From Escherichia coli (GTDB lineage Bacteria; Pseudomonadota; Gammaproteobacteria; Enterobacterales; Enterobacteriaceae), in the NCBI GenBank assembly GCA_022969815.1, contig GCA_022969815.1_4535.1: 64,000 nt of DNA; one strand, given 5' to 3'. Made by a program: the position numbers and the translations under genes. Of this stretch, positions 1-62,152 are shown one piece after another (position 1 is the first letter of the stretch; each line of letters begins with the position of its first letter). The notes under the pieces are model-generated. The model worked only from the letters and a program-made list of their open reading frames with translations. It did no database searches and was not told the origin of the DNA.

Positions 1-47
1 ACCTCATGCTTACAAGGCAAGTGCTCTACCAACTGAGCTATTGAAGC
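1..47 (-). tRNA. partial tRNA, probably tRNA-Thr (anticodon TGT); 3' half lies outside the window
   Basis: reverse complement gives acceptor GCTTCAA, D-arm GCTC-AGTTGGTA-GAGC and anticodon loop CTTGTAA; T-arm not in window. Confidence 0.45.
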
Positions 48-399
48 GTATTGCGCCCCTTCAGCCATGCTTGATGTTGACCAGAACACAGTTAAACTGT
101 GGGAGGAGGAACACCGCAGGGGGCTTCAGTTGGACGACTTACAGGGAGCGACCCTGTTTCTTTTCTGGGACTCGGCAGGATTCGATACCTGCAATTCCAG
201 AAGCCTCTTGGCAACTGAGGGTTTACCTTAACCCTACAAGTCCATAATTCTTAAATACTTTGGAGCCTTACTGATAAACCGTTAGTTTGTAACATAGCGT
301 ATTTCCATTCTGGGGCACCGCCTGTGAATGTAATTCCAATACAAACTTTCTCAAGATCAAACCAATTATCAAATAACATTACAACCTCCAGTTTGAATT

Positions 400-483
400 T
401 GGTGTGAGATGATGGATTCGAACCACCGCGCCTTTCAGAAGGGATTTACAGTCCCCCGCAATCGACCACTCTGCCAATCTCAC
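400..483 (-). tRNA. tRNA-Tyr (anticodon GTA), long variable arm, CCA encoded
   Basis: reverse complement folds as cloverleaf: acceptor GTGAGAT/ATCTCAC, anticodon stem GGGGA/TCCCT with loop CTGTAAA, T-arm GGTGG-TTCGAAT-CCATC, 3' ACCA. Confidence 0.7.
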
Positions 484-607
484 AAAATTGTTTTTAAAGT
501 AGCCAGTATTCGCGGTACTGACTATGCGGTATCGGAGATGGTGAGAGCCATCTGCCGAAAGTTTACTCTGTTAAAGTAAGAAACAACAAGCTACATTAAA
601 AACAACT

Positions 608-693
608 TGGCGGTAGATGTAGGACTCGAACCTACACGCCGTTTCCGACTACAGTTTAGCAAACTGTTGTGGCTACCATTTCACCAATCTACC
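608..693 (-). tRNA. tRNA-Ser (anticodon GCT), type II long variable arm, CCA encoded
   Basis: acceptor GGTAGAT/ATCTACC, anticodon stem ACAGT/ACTGT with loop TTGCTAA, T-arm GTAGG-TTCGAGT-CCTAC. Confidence 0.7.
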
Positions 694-699
694 TAAATT

Positions 700-789
700 T
701 GGAGGAAGGTAATGGAGTCGAACCATCACCGTATCTCTACAATGGGCCAGGGTTCAAATCTGGTTGCGTACCACTACGCCCTACCTTCC
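700..789 (-). tRNA. tRNA-Ser (anticodon TGA), long variable arm, CCA encoded
   Basis: acceptor GGAAGGT/ACCTTCC, T-arm GATGG-TTCGACT-CCATT, anticodon loop TTTGAAC; one mismatch at loop-closing pair. Confidence 0.6.
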
Positions 790-1024
790 ATACATTTAAT
801 CTAACATAAAACGATGTTGATTGTCAACACCTTTTAAAACATTTTATTATGAATGGTGACTCCACCAACCCCCGTTCTCCACGAACGGTACTCTTCGAGC
901 AATCTACCCTTGCAATCAAACGTTGTACACCGTTAGCTTACTCATGCATATTTGCCTCATTCTCTGCCAACCATGATCAGTGGTAGGGTTCAAATCACTT
1001 GAGCTAATTCATACTAAAATGTTC

Positions 1025-1099
1025 TGGTGTCTTTACAAGGAATCGAACCTTGACTAAGAGTTTAGAAGACTCCTGTGCTATCCATTACACCATAAAGAC
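1025..1099 (-). tRNA. tRNA-Arg (anticodon TCT), CCA encoded
   Basis: acceptor GTCTTTA/TAAAGAC, anticodon stem GGAGT/ACTCT with loop CTTCTAA, T-arm CAAGG-TTCGATT-CCTTG. Confidence 0.75.
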
Positions 1100-1101
1100 G
1101 T

Positions 1102-1176
1102 TGGTGGCCCTGACTGGTTTCGATCCAGTTGCCTATCGGTTATGAGCCGACTGCTCTCCCATTGAGCTACAGGGCC
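1102..1176 (-). tRNA. tRNA with CAT anticodon (Met, fMet or Ile-lysidine not distinguishable), CCA encoded
   Basis: acceptor GGCCCTG/CAGGGCC, D-arm GCTC-AATGGGA-GAGC, anticodon loop CTCATAA, T-arm ACTGG-ATCGAAA-CCAGT. Confidence 0.75.
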
Positions 1177-21995: not shown

Positions 21996-22193
21996 ATGAA
22001 AGACCAAATGATTAATGGACCTCGTGTAACAGTCAGTCCTAAAACTTTTGCATCTCTTCTGGACGACACTGGTGAGGTTTATACTTACACAAGAGATTCA
22101 CTGCCTCTGCCTGAAAGTGCACAGGGTTCACGTTCGCTTTTTTATAAAGGTGTTCTTTTTACGGAAGCAAAAGAAGACAAGGAGACTAAATGA
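21996..22193 (+). CDS. hypothetical protein (65 aa)
   Basis: ORF with AAGGAGA SD. Confidence 0.45.
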   Translation: MKDQMINGPRVTVSPKTFASLLDDTGEVYTYTRDSLPLPESAQGSRSLFYKGVLFTEAKEDKETK

Positions 22194-23182
22194 GATACCT
22201 GGTAACAGGTGGTCTTGGTTTCATTGGGAGCGCCGTAGTGCGCTCTCTTTGTCAAGATCCTAATAACGAAGTTTTTGTTATTGATAAAATGGGCTACGCA
22301 GCCGATATTGAAAATGTAGGGGATATCACTCACGCCAAACTAAGTATGACAGATTTGGCAAACGAAGCACAGGTCAAAAGTTTAGTGGTAGAATGCAACC
22401 CTGATTTCATCATTCATTTAGCGGCAGAGAGTCATGTGGACAACTCTATCAAGAATCCACGAGCTTTCATCGACTCCAATATCATCGGTACATATAATCT
22501 GTTAGAAGCTGCAAGGCTTCTTCCTAAGAACAAGCTGAAGATGTTTGTACACGTCTCTACAGACGAAGTGTACGGTGATATGGAGGACTCTGGTGCTCCA
22601 TTTACCGAAGAGACAGCTTATGCTCCTTCAAGCCCATACAGCGCGTCTAAGGCGGCATCTGATCACCTTGTCAAAGCTTGGCACCGTACTTACGATTTGC
22701 CTGTAGTGATAACCAACTGTTCCAATAACTTTGGGCCTTACCAACACCCTGAAAAATTGATTCCGAAAGTGATCACGAACATCTTGACAAGCAAAGAAAT
22801 TCCAGTGTACGGTAAAGGCGATCAAGTAAGAGATTGGCTTTTTGTTGAGGACCATGCGCGAGCTATTCTTCAAGTAGCTTCTGGCGGCGAACCTGGACAA
22901 ACTTACAACGTAGGCACACGTAATCCTAAAACCAATATGGAGATCATCTATATGATTTGTGATTACATGGATGCCGTACACCCGCAAAGTGGAACCTACC
23001 CGTCTTCGAGTTTAATAACTTTTGTTGAAGATCGTAAAGGACATGACTTGCATTATGAAATCAACCCTGCTAAGATTGAATCTGAACTGGGTTGGAGTGC
23101 AAACTCCACATTTGAACAAGACCTTTACTCTACGATAGAGTGGTATTTAAACAACCCTCAATGGTGGAGAGAAAAGATTTAA
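22190..23182 (+). CDS. rmlB: dTDP-glucose 4,6-dehydratase
   Basis: TGGLGFIGS Rossmann motif, YSASKAASD (YxxxK), [14 protein letters not shown] segment characteristic of RmlB. Confidence 0.8.
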
Positions 23183-23190
23183 GGAGGGTT

Positions 23191-24069
23191 ATGAAAGGTA
23201 TTATTTTGGCGGGAGGAAGTGGAACCCGCCTACACCCTGTAACACGCAGTGTGAGCAAGCAATTGCTCCCTGTGTATGACAAACCTATGATTTATTATCC
23301 TTTATCAGTCTTGATGTTGGCAGATATTAAGGATATCTTAATCATCACAACCCCAGGCGATCAGGAAGATTTTGAGTATCTTCTTGGAGATGGATCTATG
23401 TTTGGGATAAAAATCACTTACGCAATGCAGTCTGAACCACGAGGTCTTGCAGATGCTTTCATCATCGGTAAAGATTTTATTGAGGAAGATTCCGTTGCCC
23501 TTATTTTAGGGGATAACTTGTTCTTCGGACAAAGTTTCGGAAAACTTCTTATCCAAGCCAGCGAAATGGTGGATGTTTGGGGTGGAGCTTGTATCTTCGG
23601 GTATCTGGTGAAAGATCCTGAACGATTCGGTGTTGTTGAGTTCGGAAGTAATCGCCAAGCTATCTCTATTGAAGAGAAACCGGAACATCCTAAATCAGAC
23701 TATGCCGTCACGGGTTTGTATTTCTATGACAACTCTGTTGTTCAACGTGCATTGGAAGTAACTCCTTCTGATCGTGGAGAACTGGAGATCACAGATATCA
23801 ATCGCAGCTACCTCGAAGACAGAAAGTTACAAGTTGAAGTTCTTGGAAGAGGATTCACTTGGCTGGATACAGGGACACACGCCAGTCTAATGGAAGCAGG
23901 TCAATTCGTGCAGACTATTGAGAACTGCCAAGGATTGAAGATTGCGTGCCTGGAAGAGATTGCTTTCAAAAAAGGGTGGATTTCTTTAGAGACTTTGGTG
24001 TATCATGGCAACTCATTGAAGAAAACAGAGTACGGGCAATATCTGTTAAAATTAGCGGAGGGTAAATGA
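23191..24069 (+). CDS. rmlA: glucose-1-phosphate thymidylyltransferase
   Basis: [19 protein letters not shown]-terminus; AAGGAGGG SD; ORF track start 23140 is upstream. Confidence 0.85.
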
Positions 24070-45595: not shown

Positions 45596-46276
45596 CTATT
45601 TAATGTTCAGTTTGTTAAGCAGACGTTGAACCGTATAAGGGTGCCATGTGGTACTGCCACGAACAGTTTCAATTTTCTCTTCAGTAAAGATCTCTGCAAT
45701 TCGAGTCAGAGATGCTCCTGCTTTCCTCATTAACGTAACTTTATCACGAAGCTTCTCGGCATACAAGGTGCTTTTATCATTTTTTCGAGATTGTCTGTAA
45801 TCTTTACGAGACTCTTTATATTTTGGAGATGCAGATCCTAAGAGAATACCTTTGCTCTTAGCTACTGCCAAACCTTTTTTGATACGATCTGCCATACCAC
45901 GTACTTCCTGTTCTGCAAGGACAGATAGAAGCTGAATAACCATCTTGTCTGCATCCGGCATGATCGCAATCTTAACGTCAATCATTTCCAAGAGGATTGC
46001 TACCGAGGCGTTGTTACGACCTAAACGGTCCACTTTAGCTACCAAAAGCGTTGCTCCGGTAGCTTTACACATCTCAACAGCCTTGACAAGTTCTTTACGT
46101 TGCTTCCAGTCGCCTTTACCTGAATAAAATTCAGAAAACTCTCCGATCACTTCAGCCTCCGGCACAGATTCCAAGAAATAACGGATATCGTTTTCCTGGC
46201 TCTGCATACCATACTGGGCTTCACCTTTCTTCTGTTTAGACAAACGGCTGTAAACAACAAACTTTTTCATGATCAA
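45596..46276 (-). CDS. serine recombinase (resolvase/invertase family) with C-terminal helix-turn-helix
   Basis: N-terminal VVYSRLSKQKK...QSQ (catalytic Ser context), LLVAKVDRLGRN, C-terminal basic HTH; GAGGAG SD. Confidence 0.7.
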   Translation of the reverse strand: MIMKKFVVYSRLSKQKKGEAQYGMQSQENDIRYFLESVPEAEVIGEFSEFYSGKGDWKQRKELVKAVEMCKATGATLLVAKVDRLGRNNASVAILLEMIDVKIAIMPDADKMVIQLLSVLAEQEVRGMADRIKKGLAVAKSKGILLGSASPKYKESRKDYRQSRKNDKSTLYAEKLRDKVTLMRKAGASLTRIAEIFTEEKIETVRGSTTWHPYTVQRLLNKLNIK

Positions 46277-46303: not shown

Positions 46304-46507
46304 TTACAAACTTGAAGCAGTTATTGTCAAGGAATTTATTGGCATCTTTTCCTGTTTCCAAACGGTGCATTGTTCTTTAAGGGCTATCTGCTCATTCTGC
46401 ACGTCTGATACCGCATTAGCAAAGAGGATCAGAAATCCCAAAAAGACCAACATCAATAACAGATTAAAGAAAGTTTGAAAACTCATGCATCCTCCCATTT
46501 GATCCAC
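46304..46507 (-). CDS. small membrane protein (67 aa)
   Basis: LLLMLVFLGFLILFA hydrophobic segment. Confidence 0.45.
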   Translation of the reverse strand: MDQMGGCMSFQTFFNLLLMLVFLGFLILFANAVSDVQNEQIALKEQCTVWKQEKMPINSLTITASSL

Positions 46508-46737
46508 AGAATCATTTCTTCAACGTAAACCTCTTTACCTTTGTTATTGATGAAAGTGTATTCTATGAACTCCGCTGTATACTTTTTGTTGTATTGCTCC
46601 GCTGCTGGGATCGGACACTTTGTCATACGTGTCTCAACCCATTGACGATGAATCGTTGCCTTGTTTTTGGGGTCAAACGGGTGTAAATAGTGCGGTTCTC
46701 CCTCTTGACTATGCCCCATTTTATTCTTCTTCGCCAT
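46483..46737 (-). CDS. hypothetical protein; start at internal ATG with GGAGGAGGTG SD
   Basis: ORF track 46483..46857 otherwise overlaps upstream paralog gene. Confidence 0.45.
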   Translation of the reverse strand: MAKKNKMGHSQEGEPHYLHPFDPKNKATIHRQWVETRMTKCPIPAAEQYNKKYTAEFIEYTFINNKGKEVYVEEMILWIKWEDA

Positions 46738-59261: not shown

Positions 59262-59642
59262 TCAGGCTCCTTTACGATTATGCAAACAATCTTTCACTCG
59301 TTCTTGCACCCACTCTACACGAAGCTTGTTTTCATGCGCTCTGCTGTGGTTATGCTCTCGCACATATTCTTCGTAGTTCACATTAAAGGGAACACTGACA
59401 GACAATCCTGCACAACGGAATTGTTTCTTCATTTCTTTTAATGTTGCATCACTTATGGCACAAAGCTGTTTTGCCTGTTCCTCGCTGAAATTACTGTCCC
59501 ACATCTCATCCCAGATAAAGGTATCCAAGCATACACATAACCCATGCCTTGTGCGCTCTTTGGTATGATGATCAGCAAGCCAACTTTCATAGAAGGCTAA
59601 CAACACTGGACTACTCAACGGAACATTTTTACTCTCTTGCAT
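59262..59642 (-). CDS. member of 10-copy paralogous small-protein family
   Basis: LLAFYESWLADHH ... GLCVCL ... VPFN ... HENKLRVEWVQERV; ATG with AGAGAGGAGA SD. Confidence 0.55.
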   Translation of the reverse strand: MQESKNVPLSSPVLLAFYESWLADHHTKERTRHGLCVCLDTFIWDEMWDSNFSEEQAKQLCAISDATLKEMKKQFRCAGLSVSVPFNVNYEEYVREHNHSRAHENKLRVEWVQERVKDCLHNRKGA

Positions 59643-60488
59643 GATAATCTCCTCTCTTGGTTTCATGACAAACATCGTAACTCTCAACGAGGAACATCAT
59701 ACGATCAATCCTCGGCAATTACAATTCATTTATCATTGGTATTCCCTATCAATTATTCCATATATACCTGTTATTTTTGACACCCCTTTTGGTCAAATAT
59801 TAATCGGCAAAATATCTACGGGACGGTTCTTTGAACCTCCCCTCTGTTCCTGCGATTTATCGGCAAGAATATCATCGGCAAAGAGATGGAAAAGCCTTTG
59901 GTAGCAAGGATTTATGGCGAGTACGTCAGGACTGCTGAACGCGAATTTTCCGGCCCCTCCACTTCTGCGCGCCGGAATCCTCAAATATCAATGAGAATAA
60001 TTATCATTATCATTCGCATTCAATAACTTAGGCGATCTTTTCCCCTGCAATAAGGTTGGGCCTAACTTAACCATCACTTTTCAAACAATCCTTTATAAAT
60101 TAACTACTTAACAACCTAAACATATGATTACTACGGTGTAAAGGTGCCGCCCATAACAGACCGCCTATAAAATAAATGAGAATGATTATTATTCAGACAA
60201 TTCTTACAACAAATCGACCAATAAATCAAGATTTTTCTGATTTTATTTACGTTTAAGAGAACGTGCTCAACATATCCGCCATAGGCGGCTATCTTTCCCC
60301 GCAAACATTAAGCCTTTATCTTTCATCTTCCTGTATATCTGTACAGTGTGCAAGGTATCGCTACACGCTCGCCTTGCCCCCCGCATAATCCTTGACCGTG
60401 CTAATGATGATCACACTGAACGATAGTGATAACTCATGTAATAATTACATTGATTATTATATTACGCTTAACTATTCTTACATACAAT

Positions 60489-60615
60489 GCTAATAATAAG
60501 CCAGCGTAATTAGTGTAAGCGTAATACGCTTGCAATAATTGCAAGCTACATAATCACAAGAAATAACTATCACCGATAGTTATGATTGTGGGGGTGTAGT
60601 TGGCTTATTATTAGC
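60489..60615. repeat. inverted-repeat element: perfect 15-bp inverted repeats (GCTAATAATAAGCCA / TGGCTTATTATTAGC) flanking about 97 bp with two internal palindromes
   Basis: internal palindromes GCTTGCAAT-a-ATTGCAAGC and ATAACTATC-acc-GATAGTTAT; 14-bp direct repeat CGTGCTAATGATGA lies outside each end. Confidence 0.6.
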
Positions 60616-60659
60616 TCGCTACGTGTCCGGCGTAGCGTGCTAATGATGAGGCTTGGAAT

Positions 60660-61060
60660 GATTCATTTTGCAATTATTACAGTCTTCACTATTTCGGCAA
60701 TAGGCACTATTTTACTAATAGTTGTTATTTTAATGGTTTCATTTGTTATCGTTAGTTAGTTGGTTGTTTTGTAGTGTTATCGTTATCTTGCTTAGTATTC
60801 ATCATGGTTTGATTGTTTGTCGTTATCAATCATCTTTCTATTATTCCTTTGATTATGATTAGTTTGCTTATTGTTTTAGGTTGTTGGTGGATTAGTTGTT
60901 GCGAACTATTATCAACATTATAGTTATGCACTTATATTGCATAGATACGCAAGGATAGATGATAATGGTTATCATTGCACTGGAAAGGAGGAAAACAGCC
61001 TTTTTCGGTTGTTTGTTGTTGGTTGTTGATCGATTTTAACCGCTCTAAATAGCTCTCTAA
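60660..61060. repeat. strand-skewed T/G-rich iteron-like region (C-poor on plus strand)
   Basis: recurring GTTATCGTTA, GGTTGTT, TTATCAACA (DnaA-box-like) words; no ORF of 60 aa or more on the minus strand. Confidence 0.5.
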
Positions 61061-61182
61061 CAGCCTGTTGCCCTGGGAGGTATGGTTATTCGTTTGCTGG
61101 TTGATTAGCTCGATACCGCGATTTATTCATTTTTGTTCTGTGTCGGTTTTTCATAGGCGGAAGCTATCAACATTGTTCGGGC

Positions 61183-61220
61183 AAAAAGAAAGGGCGCTTG
61201 GTGCGCCCCTTGTTTTGTTG
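61183..61220. terminator. bidirectional intrinsic terminator
   Basis: GGGCGC-ttggt-GCGCCC hairpin with AAAAAGAAA upstream and CTTGTTTTGTTG downstream. Confidence 0.6.
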
Positions 61221-61224
61221 TCAA

Positions 61225-61644
61225 TTATAACGCTTCATATATTGAGTAGATCCGGTTTGCCAGGTCATTACGAAAGCGGAATTTTTCATCACGTTTAATC
61301 ATCAGATCCTTAAAACCGCATTCTTTCAATGCTTCGTTAACTTTACTGCGGCATACTTTCATATTGTCCTGCGCGTCACCAATAAACTTATTGCTATGAT
61401 GCATTGCTTTGATCTCTTCCTCCAGGACCAGGGCAACTACACGGATCGGATCAAGCTGATACGCGGTAACATCCATGCGGCATTGTAAACGGCTTTTAAC
61501 GTCTGCCACCGGATATACTGCAACCTCTTCCCCGTCAACGTTCACGATAACCAGTTTACCATCAATTTCGAAGCCTTTCGCGGCGCTACCGTGGCAAAAA
61601 GCGTTATCGAAGGAGTAAGCCGGATTATTTGATTTAATGTTCAT
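61225..61644 (-). CDS. hypothetical protein (139 aa)
   Basis: ORF with AAAGGACAAC SD-like, own promoter and terminator. Confidence 0.5.
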   Translation of the reverse strand: MNIKSNNPAYSFDNAFCHGSAAKGFEIDGKLVIVNVDGEEVAVYPVADVKSRLQCRMDVTAYQLDPIRVVALVLEEEIKAMHHSNKFIGDAQDNMKVCRSKVNEALKECGFKDLMIKRDEKFRFRNDLANRIYSIYEAL

Positions 61645-61689
61645 GTTGTTGTCCTTTGTTTCGTTTCGTTGTTTGCTGCCAGTGAGTTA

Positions 61690-61718
61690 AATATAATATA
61701 ACGCCGATCCCCTGTCAA
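61690..61718 (-). promoter_or_regulatory. sigma70-like promoter (minus strand) with GGATC in spacer
   Basis: minus strand TTGACA-ggGGATCggcgttatat-TATATT. Confidence 0.5.
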
Positions 61719-61750
61719 TAGGGGATAGCGCATTATTTACATTTCTTTAC

Positions 61751-61777
61751 GTTAAAGGGCGCTTAGTGCGCCCTTGT
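61751..61777 (-). terminator. terminator-like hairpin (near copy of 61183..61220)
   Basis: GGGCGC-ttagt-GCGCCC; T-run weaker. Confidence 0.45.
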
Positions 61778-61783
61778 ACAATC

Positions 61784-62152
61784 TTACTTTGTGCGGTTGT
61801 AAACGTTATCGCGTTCAACCATCAAAGCAAGGCGGATCAGTTGATCAGTTGTATCGCGTAAGCTGTCAGGCCATGTTTTATTGTTCCAGCTATCTAAATT
61901 TGATTGAATATAGGTTTCAATGGCTTGATCCATATTGTCGAACAAGTTTGCCTCCAGGCTCTCGGCTGTTTCACACTGGAAAGCATCAGCGACACTATTA
62001 ATCAATAAGCAAGCCAGTAAATCAGCGTTGCGCCAATTTTTACGGATAGTTTCATCTTTCAGATAACCAACGAGATCAACCTTTGCGCCAGTGGTGGACG
62101 TTGCGATCACTTCTTGCGCTTTTTCAACTGCTTTAATTGCTGATTTGCTCAT
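61784..62152 (-). CDS. hypothetical protein (122 aa)
   Basis: ORF with AGAGGAAAG SD. Confidence 0.5.
   Translation of the reverse strand: MSKSAIKAVEKAQEVIATSTTGAKVDLVGYLKDETIRKNWRNADLLACLLINSVADAFQCETAESLEANLFDNMDQAIETYIQSNLDSWNNKTWPDSLRDTTDQLIRLALMVERDNVYNRTK

Follow-up and report, generated by a model that had tools for sequence, protein, structure and literature searches.

What is a 1.58-kb stretch of phage DNA for, if it holds no plausible gene and contains exact repeats and palindromes? This question is raised by the gap at positions 59643-61224 of a 64,000-nucleotide stretch of the Escherichia coli assembly GCA_022969815.1 (contig GCA_022969815.1_4535.1; hereafter, the window), which sits between the minus-strand genes 59262-59642 and 61225-61644. 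A first-pass annotation, made from the sequence alone, had described most of this gap (59690-61220) as a gene-free structured region, and had offered a replication origin, a packaging or DNA-injection control region, or an invertible switch as explanations. Comparison with relatives shows, by homology, that the genome of a phage with short direct terminal repeats (DTRs) has its ends in this gap. Just inside one of these repeats lies a conserved three-way-junction fold of one strand, for which a role in starting replication is our tentative reading.

The window belongs to a Phapecoctavirus-like phage (Stephanstirmvirinae), a large phage of E. coli. With 59690-61220 as the query, megablast and blastn matched ~100-140 phage records, essentially all of them Stephanstirmvirinae (Phapecoctavirus, Justusliebigvirus, and unclassified relatives), with phiWec188 and phiWec190 as the closest relatives of this interval at 96% identity. 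The idea that the region might be found at genome or terminal-repeat ends proved correct: it coincides with the annotated DTR of phi92, where the homologous DNA overlaps both the right and the left copy (343 bp each), and with the ends of the BI-EHEC and WPEC2 records. Each of these two records begins and ends with an exact copy of a 328-bp repeat, and both copies map to 59938-60267. The right end of phi92 also maps to 59938. DTRs of this phage group are already known, with 328 bp reported for Schickermooser (PMC6563267) and 342 bp, determined by PhageTerm, for BME3 (PMC12210895), and the phiWec paper attributes DTR ends to all these genomes. The published Stephanstirmvirinae accounts that were searched, which do not include the phi92 genome paper, give the repeat length only, and no boundary motif or adjacent fold was found in them. 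The corresponding repeat at 59938-60267, inferred by homology to be 330 bp long, falls in the same length class, and its boundaries coincide with the ends of relatives' records that carry exact repeats. Since its sequence is present in a single copy in the window, the assembly must be permuted, with the repeat collapsed.

We took the phi92 orientation as the natural one, which makes the natural top strand the minus strand of the window. The genome's left physical end then falls at 60267, from which the sequence reads downwards, and its right one at 59938. The unique DNA beside the left physical end (59643-59937, minus strand) is the upstream, promoter or leader, region of 59262-59642, the first gene of the left block. 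It contains only weak sigma-70-like sites, and its equivalent in phi92 is the 355 bp between the left DTR and gene 001. The right-end copy of the DTR is adjoined by ~950 bp of unique non-coding DNA.

The two boundaries of the repeat proved to be related. End A, the right physical end (59925-59950, + strand), reads GGACTGCTG|AACGCGAATTTTC, the bar marking the boundary between 59937 and 59938. Its consensus in relatives is GAGGTGCT(T)|AACGCGA(A)TTTTC, and it is the exact record start or end in BI-EHEC, WPEC2, BME3, phi1_175008, and phi92. End B, the left physical end (60251-60272, + strand), reads TTTAAGAGAACGTGCT|CAACA with the boundary between 60267 and 60268 and has the consensus TTTAAGAGAAGGTGCT|CAACA; the string GTGCTNAAC occurs once in the window, at End B. 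In the 29 aligned loci, the core GGTGCT|YAAC was common to both DTR boundaries, in the same orientation and in every clade examined, with inferred DTR lengths of 320-352 bp across the clades. From these alignments we infer that GGTGCT|YAAC is the putative cleavage or nicking site by which both ends would be made. A small hairpin, CCGCC-ATA-GGCGG, lies directly inside End B (60276-60288, + strand); in Phapecoctavirus relatives this spot is taken by the stem just given, with a changed loop, or by another 5-bp stem (ATCGC..GCGAT). Between End B and the fold, WPEC2 (locus L008), muut (L004), FKP3 (L014), KP2025 (L016), Tr1 (L017), and locus L033 have one or two additional GTGCT|CAACA modules, often with a following short hairpin, and these modules look like tandem duplications of the cut-site module.

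Two other conserved features lie in or near the repeat. A palindromic motif, ATGATAAT..TTATCAT, forms a repeat family with copies at 60947-60976 and, inside the DTR, at 59979-60008 and 60164-60193. This three-copy motif is an imperfect ~18-bp palindrome (AATGAGAATnATTATCATT / ATGATAATGGTTATCATT) that by eye resembles the E. coli Fur box, and its relatives are present in phi92, FKP3, Tr1, rV5, and the DTR alignment. A regulator of host or phage origin may bind it. The second feature, at 60090-60128 inside the DTR, is a block TTATAAATCAAT..TTGGCAAGTCTAAACAT that is conserved across clades and has a TATAAAT facing inward on the + strand. This block might be a promoter from which transcription could run towards the fold.

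The repeats and palindromes that had drawn attention to the region lie 221-380 bp inside the right-end DTR. Both direct reading and a repeat finder confirmed them as exact. The two 15-bp arms, GCTAATAATAAGCCA (60489-60503) and TGGCTTATTATTAGC (60601-60615), are complementary at 15/15 positions with 97 nt between them. They enclose a 19-bp palindrome at 60528-60546 (8-bp arms, 3-nt centre) and a 21-bp palindrome at 60563-60583 (9-bp arms, 3-nt centre). A scan of the 64 kb for inverted repeats (seed >=11, arms <=200 nt apart) returned five pairs, of which only 60489/60601 was perfect at >=15 nt. The 14-bp direct repeat CGTGCTAATGATGA was likewise found exact on the + strand at 60397-60410 and 60636-60649. 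The upstream box belongs to the module CCCCGCAAAT..N..TGCTAAT, which is conserved between clades, and the downstream box abuts the trailing hairpin described below. The related word GCTAAT[AG]AT occurs five times in the window, counting both strands, and four of the five copies lie within 60400-60650.

On the + strand these elements combine into a single fold of roughly 150 nt. Its core, a three-way junction at 60489-60615, has a minimum free energy (MFE) structure identical to the centroid at -73.9 kcal/mol (z = -10.4 against dinucleotide shuffles). The 15-nt inverted repeat forms the closing helix P1 (60489-60503 / 60601-60615). One arm is a long hairpin made of P2a (60506-60512 / 60536-60542) and P2b (60514-60522 / 60526-60534, tip loop AAT). 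The other consists of P3 (60545-60551 / 60594-60600), P3b (60554-60559 / 60586-60591), and P4 (60563-60571 / 60575-60583, loop ACC), the last being the 21-bp palindrome. The core is followed by a trailing hairpin, P5 (60617-60624 / 60630-60637, loop GTCCG), all helices being given for the + strand. From End B inward, the fold begins after 221 nt in the window and after 170-390 nt in relatives.

To see whether the fold is conserved as a structure, we aligned 21 homologues from Phapecoctavirus, Justusliebigvirus, the Klebsiella phages FKP3, phi1_175008, and KP2025, the Citrobacter phage Tr1, and IMG/VR contigs; a metagenome scan then added nine further ones. The RNAalifold consensus for the + strand was a three-way junction followed by a trailing hairpin, and the MFE fold of the window was identical to it apart from P3b, a helix peculiar to the fold of the window. 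In the MAFFT alignment of these 21 sequences, which was not fitted to any structure, 99.9% of 1000 pair cells were canonical, and 14 of the 53 pairs showed compensatory changes; none of 500 shuffles reached the observed values, and slid controls paired in 23-53%. In a model-fitted alignment of 27 distinct sequences, 99.6% of the cells were paired, with compensatory changes in 15 pairs (107 cells). P1 was found in four perfectly complementary versions (AAGCCA/TGGCTT, AACGCA/TGCGTT, AACACA/TGTGTT, and ACCGCA/TGCGGT), its outer 10 bp being invariant. The sequence of P4 was almost wholly replaced among relatives, with the 9 bp and the 3-nt loop kept, and three of the eight pairs of P5 showed compensatory changes.

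The same alignments assigned the 19-bp palindrome a partner that its symmetry does not suggest. Its three "loop" bases co-vary, in three columns, with a segment 25 nt upstream, and the long-range helix P2 is found as GTAATTA/TAATTGC, GCAATAA/TTATTGC, GCAACAA/TTGTTGC, GTAATGA/TCATTGC, and GTAATGG/CTATTGC. Because of this covariation, we place the palindrome chiefly in P2; the stem of its local hairpin is invariant. On the enlarged MAFFT alignment, in which the gaps of the phi92 clade are placed differently, RNAalifold preferred the local hairpin, and a manual realignment and the other alignments favoured the long-range helix. The two forms may alternate.

Several observations distinguish the two strands. 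The consensus fold energy was -66.2 kcal/mol with 53 pairs for the + strand and -45.9 kcal/mol with 44 pairs, with A·C breaks, for the minus strand. Ten paired columns contain one-sided substitutions, and every one of these produces G·U, never A·C, when read on the + strand. P4, a helix that was defined without strand-aware prediction, accounts for five of the ten. Individual folds behaved alike, with + and minus senses at -73.9 and -56.3 kcal/mol in the window, -79.7 and -65.8 kcal/mol in phi92, and -76.0 and -67.9 kcal/mol in Vequintavirus bov11CS3. With DNA parameters the gap between the strands was smaller (-44.2 kcal/mol for + versus -38.8 for minus). A covariance model built on the fold scored 149-198 bits in the + sense across homologues (195 for the window) and ~20-29 bits in reverse (~20 for the window). 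The G·U-only changes, the energy gap, and the model scores together show that selection acts on the + strand in single-stranded form, be it RNA or DNA. Neither a protein-binding site in duplex DNA nor a symmetric cruciform fits these data as the target of selection.

The covariance model found exactly one copy of the element in the window. Rfam 15 gave no match at the gathering score, and at E<=1 only a chance-level match of Mu-gpT-DE at 59640-59693. We considered whether the element might be a miniature inverted-repeat transposable element and rejected this, given its single copy in the window and at each locus, direct repeats that are 78 and 20 nt away from the inverted-repeat arms, and its absence from 5,426 E. 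coli genomes. The outer stem enclosing two palindromic arms with 3-nt loops, ~125 nt in all, recalls the T-shaped hairpin of the adeno-associated virus inverted terminal repeat. Unlike the latter, the fold is internal and single-copy in a double-stranded genome, shows no flip/flop (its orientation is fixed in 133 records), and has arms that are long composite helices, one of them with long-range pairing.

A counterpart was found in a second group of phages. In rV5 and bov11CS3, the homologue of 61225-61644 likewise precedes a long stretch without annotated genes, which in rV5 is labelled only as "non-coding" and lacking open reading frames (ORFs) (Kropinski et al. 2013, PMC3606486). On rV5-type phages the covariance model gave a weak full-length match (22-25 bits, E ~1e-5 to 1e-6 over 10 kb) at the equivalent distance and strand. 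The fold there (z = -9.7) is built from an outer stem of 18 bp (GACATAATATAAAAGCAG/CTGCTTTTATATTATGTC) with two long arms, followed by a trailing hairpin, and it is bracketed by a 19-20-nt direct repeat, CCATGCCATTCGTTTGCAT, at the same two positions that CGTGCTAATGATGA takes in the window. The rV5 "non-coding" box shares genomic position, fold architecture, and flanking direct repeats with the window, but its P1, arms, and boxes bear no sequence relation to those of the window. The rV5-type element is present in ~120 Vequintavirus records.

Beyond the downstream box, the + strand enters an AT-rich, C-depleted tract (60650-61035). The first-pass description of a C-poor tract with repeated words was accurate: C makes up 7-13% and T 33-54% over ~60715-61014, and the tract contains three 31-nt units at 60724-60825, four copies of GGTTGTT, and two of GTTATCGTTA, which are 31 bp apart and are the only + strand copies in the window. 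In every clade, the C content of the + strand over the first 400 nt beyond the fold is 4-14%, with G>C, the sequence itself being not alignable between genera. The flanking minus-strand genes have a skew of the opposite sign. TAGATAG-type words occur in the corresponding tract of phi92 and FKP3, and repeated words with 65-78% A+T are found in all clades. The words differ between genera and stand in a low-complexity background, and as an origin-like feature they are suggestive only. The tract is 93-98% identical to phAPEC8, within a mosaic block that reaches ~62050 through coding genes. At the structured element (60450-60550), identity to phAPEC8 rises abruptly from ~50-77% to 91-99%; it stays high through the next two genes and then falls to 30-40%. 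This jump is the boundary of a mosaic (recombination) block, 60550-62050, that coincides with the fold. The tract is followed by a non-coding block conserved across genera (61036-61188, e.g. GATTAGCTCGATACCGCGATTTATTCA), whose matches are in several frames and on both strands and which is therefore conserved at the DNA level.

No part of the gap appears to encode a protein, in agreement with the first-pass finding of no plausible ORF in ~1.5 kb. The longest ORF within 59643-61224 is below 90 codons. The gap is left empty by careful annotators, with "hypothetical proteins" placed there only by pipeline-style annotations. When stop-to-stop frames were compared with distant clades by tblastn, several frames on both strands were matched. 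The best coding candidate, a minus-strand frame at 60935-61126 that matched phi92, lacks a start codon and is interrupted by in-frame stops in close relatives, and the 34-amino acid ORF of phAPEC8 in this region is not conserved. A 33-codon ORF on the + strand (60658-60759), with a GAGG Shine-Dalgarno sequence before it, would encode the very hydrophobic peptide MIHFAIITVFTISAIGTILLIVVILMVSFVIVS. Its frame is broken by indels in phAPEC8-type relatives, and it is probably a by-product of the T-rich composition.

What, then, might a folded + strand do at this place? Among the explanations offered by the first-pass annotation, an origin and packaging or end control gain from the homology to phage DTR ends, and the invertible switch loses, a single orientation having been found in 133 records. 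Our preferred reading, to which we assign a probability of roughly 0.35, is that the fold may be a cis-acting replication-priming or origin module that works as a folded single strand at the right genome end. Because the fold is on the + strand, the one whose 5' end points to the DTR, and the + strand downstream is G/T-rich and C-poor, a polymerase would be expected to move inward from the DTR side and to leave the + strand single-stranded, as transcript or R-loop RNA or as a displaced DNA strand. This would fit a start site for DNA synthesis. The fold and its flanking boxes would recruit the priming machinery, with a structured transcript or R-loop as the primer or, alternatively, with priming on the displaced strand, and the AT-rich, G>C tract would be the unwinding or R-loop zone. 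Low C with G>C is the pattern expected of a displaced or non-template strand and stabilises R-loops. An origin just inside one terminal repeat would allow the whole genome to be copied one way and would feed the formation of concatemer junctions.

This reading has partial parallels in known systems. The right end of T7 and T3 combines the concatemer junction, the packaging signal, the secondary origin phiOR, and a hairpin-forming palindrome; T7 origins are transcript-primed, and two secondary ones lie near the genome ends. T7/T3 and the window share a short exact DTR with repeat- and palindrome-rich unique non-coding DNA just inside the right repeat, and T7 and rV5 share a family A polymerase with a gp4-like primase-helicase. 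They differ in that the region described here has no phage RNA polymerase promoter, that the fold is a conserved three-way junction rather than a simple palindrome, and that movement here would be inward, T7 transcription being directed outward through the junction. The G4/phiX-type priming sites, the single-strand origins (sso) of rolling-circle plasmids, and ColE1 RNA II are, like the element described here, strand-specific multi-helix folds of ~150-200 nt. They are orientation-specific and work only when that strand is single-stranded, and RNA II further resembles the window in having a structured 5' domain followed by a region that forms a persistent hybrid. No promoter or nick site was identified for the present element, and neither sequence nor Rfam similarity to them was found. 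We know of no single-strand initiation signal beside the DTR of a large myovirus.

Several results weigh against a role in replication. A sigma-70 scan of the region returned only 9/12 matches, which equals the shuffle expectation, and in a clade-by-clade comparison no conserved sigma-70 promoter was found upstream of P1 at a constant distance. Nor is the T-run that the terminator has on the + strand (61192-61220) conserved in phi92, so a defined transcript is not supported. The DnaA-box-like word noted earlier, TTATCAACA at 60909, did not hold up as a signal: the pattern TTATCNACA occurs once in the region (~0.3 expected) and 11 times in the window, without enrichment, and the box is not conserved outside the genus. 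No initiator gene was identifiable next to the region. GC skew, proposed earlier as a check for an origin, follows gene orientation over the window and carries no replication signal. The identity of the tract to phAPEC8 had to be discarded as a sign of special constraint, since the identical block spans neighbouring genes. Finally, the 3-nt hairpin loops, the invariant outer P1, and the boundary-like GCTAAT box fit a DNA-binding protein, e.g. terminase, equally well. The authors of the rV5 genome paper likewise reported GC skew without a replication signal (PMC3606486).

Almost as likely as a replication-priming role, if still tentative, is a pac-like site, at which the small terminase would bind the TGCTAAT boxes and the fold region and position the nuclease at GGTGCT|YAAC, with packaging starting at the right end. 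The element adjoins both cut sites in every clade, and conserved terminus-adjacent elements are packaging sites in most phages studied; in T3 and T7 the packaging signal is at the right end. The clustering of four of the window's five GCTAAT[AG]AT boxes within 250 bp, the likeness of the box core TGCT-AA to the boundary motif TGCT-N-AAC, and the duplication of the GTGCT|CAACA module in some relatives all speak for this explanation. The invariant outer 10 bp of P1, together with extra unpaired copies of GCTAATAATA in some relatives, suggest that the sequence itself is read, and the orientation of genes and promoters would have the left end enter the cell first, and thus the right end packaged first. 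A protein binding duplex DNA, however, leaves unexplained the five-helix pairing, the long-range helix, and the one-strand pattern of G·U but never A·C, as well as the conserved C-depleted tract, and the flanking boxes of the rV5 type (CCATGCCATTCGTTTGCAT) are unlike any GTGCT-type motif.

The candidate functions, origin and packaging included, are not mutually exclusive; the right-end region of T7 combines both. Rather doubtful, though of wider reach, is the proposal that the fold represents a new class of genome-end element in rV5-like myoviruses (Stephanstirmvirinae and Vequintavirus, >250 sequenced phages), needed to regenerate and cut short DTRs either as a self-priming or primase-loading fold or as a phi29-pRNA-like packaging RNA.

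We consider it unlikely that the element is a free-standing structured non-coding RNA of ~150-170 nt or longer from the + strand, acting in trans as a regulator, an anti-defence RNA, or a motor part like the phi29 pRNA. The three-way junction, the strong covariation with tolerated G·U, the agreement of MFE and centroid, and the strong strand-specificity of the covariance model are what such an RNA would show, and the element is encoded ~550-730 nt or less from the genome end, the pRNA of phi29 being also encoded near a genome end. Both are ~120-170-nt three-way-junction folds a few hundred bases from the end. The element differs from the phi29 pRNA in having no convincing loop-loop complementarity by eye, no Rfam match even at E<=1, and an unrelated virus family and packaging motor. 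For any free-standing RNA, no conserved promoter or terminator was found, and the 3-nt loops on long perfect stems are more typical of DNA palindromes. The pseudo-ToxI locus of PhiTE was examined as a transcribed counterpart and set aside: it is a 660-bp gap with tRNAs in a circularly permuted genome, in a different context.

Less probable again is a T7-type fold-back, in which a nicked + strand end would snap back and prime through the DTR at the concatemer junction, the hairpin end being later cut at End B. The palindromic fold is in unique DNA just inside the right terminal repeat, extension of the folding strand would, by the geometry, run towards the DTR, and the replisome of rV5-like phages is of the T7 type, with a polymerase of family A and a primase-helicase like gp4 (PMC3606486). 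However, P1 has no conserved nick motif at its 3' edge, and a nick at the nearest TGCT box would leave 26 nt as an unpaired flap; the model also leaves the C-poor tract on the other side unexplained and has no need of a three-way junction. In T7, Chung, Nardone and Hinkle reportedly placed the hairpin end, in 1990, ~190 bp left of the concatemer junction.

A T5-like injection-stop or ejection-control region is very improbable. The T5 injection stop signal is, as here, repeat- and palindrome-rich non-coding DNA near the genome end, but the present region is outside the terminal repeat, the promoter logic suggests that the opposite end enters first, the strand-specific pairing is unexplained, and we know of no two-step DNA transfer in this phage group. 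An invertible or recombinogenic switch, with the 15-bp repeats as crossover sites for the serine recombinase that the first-pass annotation had correctly placed ~14 kb away (the Resolvase-N protein gene 45596-46276), can practically be dismissed despite the 97-bp segment flanked by perfect inverted repeats, as all 28 aligned homologues (at least five clades) and 133 database records have one orientation, the arms, like three other helices of the fold, change compensatorily, the inner segment pairs with its surroundings, and the recombinase is distant and has an inverted repeat of its own nearby.

That inverted repeat, an imperfect 26-nt one (46451-46476 / 46527-46552, 73% complementary), lies ~175-275 nt upstream of the Resolvase-family gene and might be the recombinase's own site or a regulatory hairpin. 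Around the gap, the left side is a tightly packed block of small genes and the right side consists of small, loosely spaced genes with strong sigma-70 promoters (CCTATTGACA-N17-TATATT). Near-consensus minus-strand promoters, CCTATTGACA-N17-TAT(A/T)(T/A)T, were found at 61650-61720 and 62470-62540 upstream of right-block genes, and each small gene of this block appears to own a promoter and often a terminator too. The last gene of the block, 61225-61644, has its intrinsic terminator at 61189-61211 (minus strand), a terminator also annotated in phAPEC8. Its product has no Pfam domain and is annotated in its phi92 homologue as "Gp30.8-like"; it is ~90% identical at the protein level to ORF164 of the rV5-type Vequintavirus phages, far above what we would expect between subfamilies. 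Elsewhere in the window, at least five tRNA genes are clustered at 1-1176 (minus strand), one of them cut by the window edge. At 22190-24069 (+ strand), genes for dTDP-glucose-4,6-dehydratase-like and glucose-1-phosphate thymidylyltransferase-like enzymes stand beside ribonucleotide reductase, ThyX, ligase, and RdgC-like genes. These sugar-nucleotide enzymes could serve DNA or surface sugar modification.

The analysis goes beyond the first-pass annotation in placing a DTR inside its interval, in assigning the 19-bp palindrome to a long-range helix, and in recognising a strand-specific structure. The shared boundary motif, the strand-specific three-way-junction fold with its boxes, and the rV5-type counterpart appear to be new: none is in Rfam, and no description was found in the literature searched, the coverage of which is incomplete.

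How short exact terminal repeats are recognised, cut, and duplicated is understood in outline only for T7 and hardly at all in large myoviruses. For a group of widely isolated therapeutic coliphages, there is now a boundary motif, GGTGCT|YAAC, a delimited structured element with predictions at the level of single base pairs, and a counterpart in rV5-type phages. An unannotated "non-coding" box thereby becomes directly testable by mutation, and practical rules follow for placing genome starts and for engineering and rebooting these phages without harming a cis-essential site.

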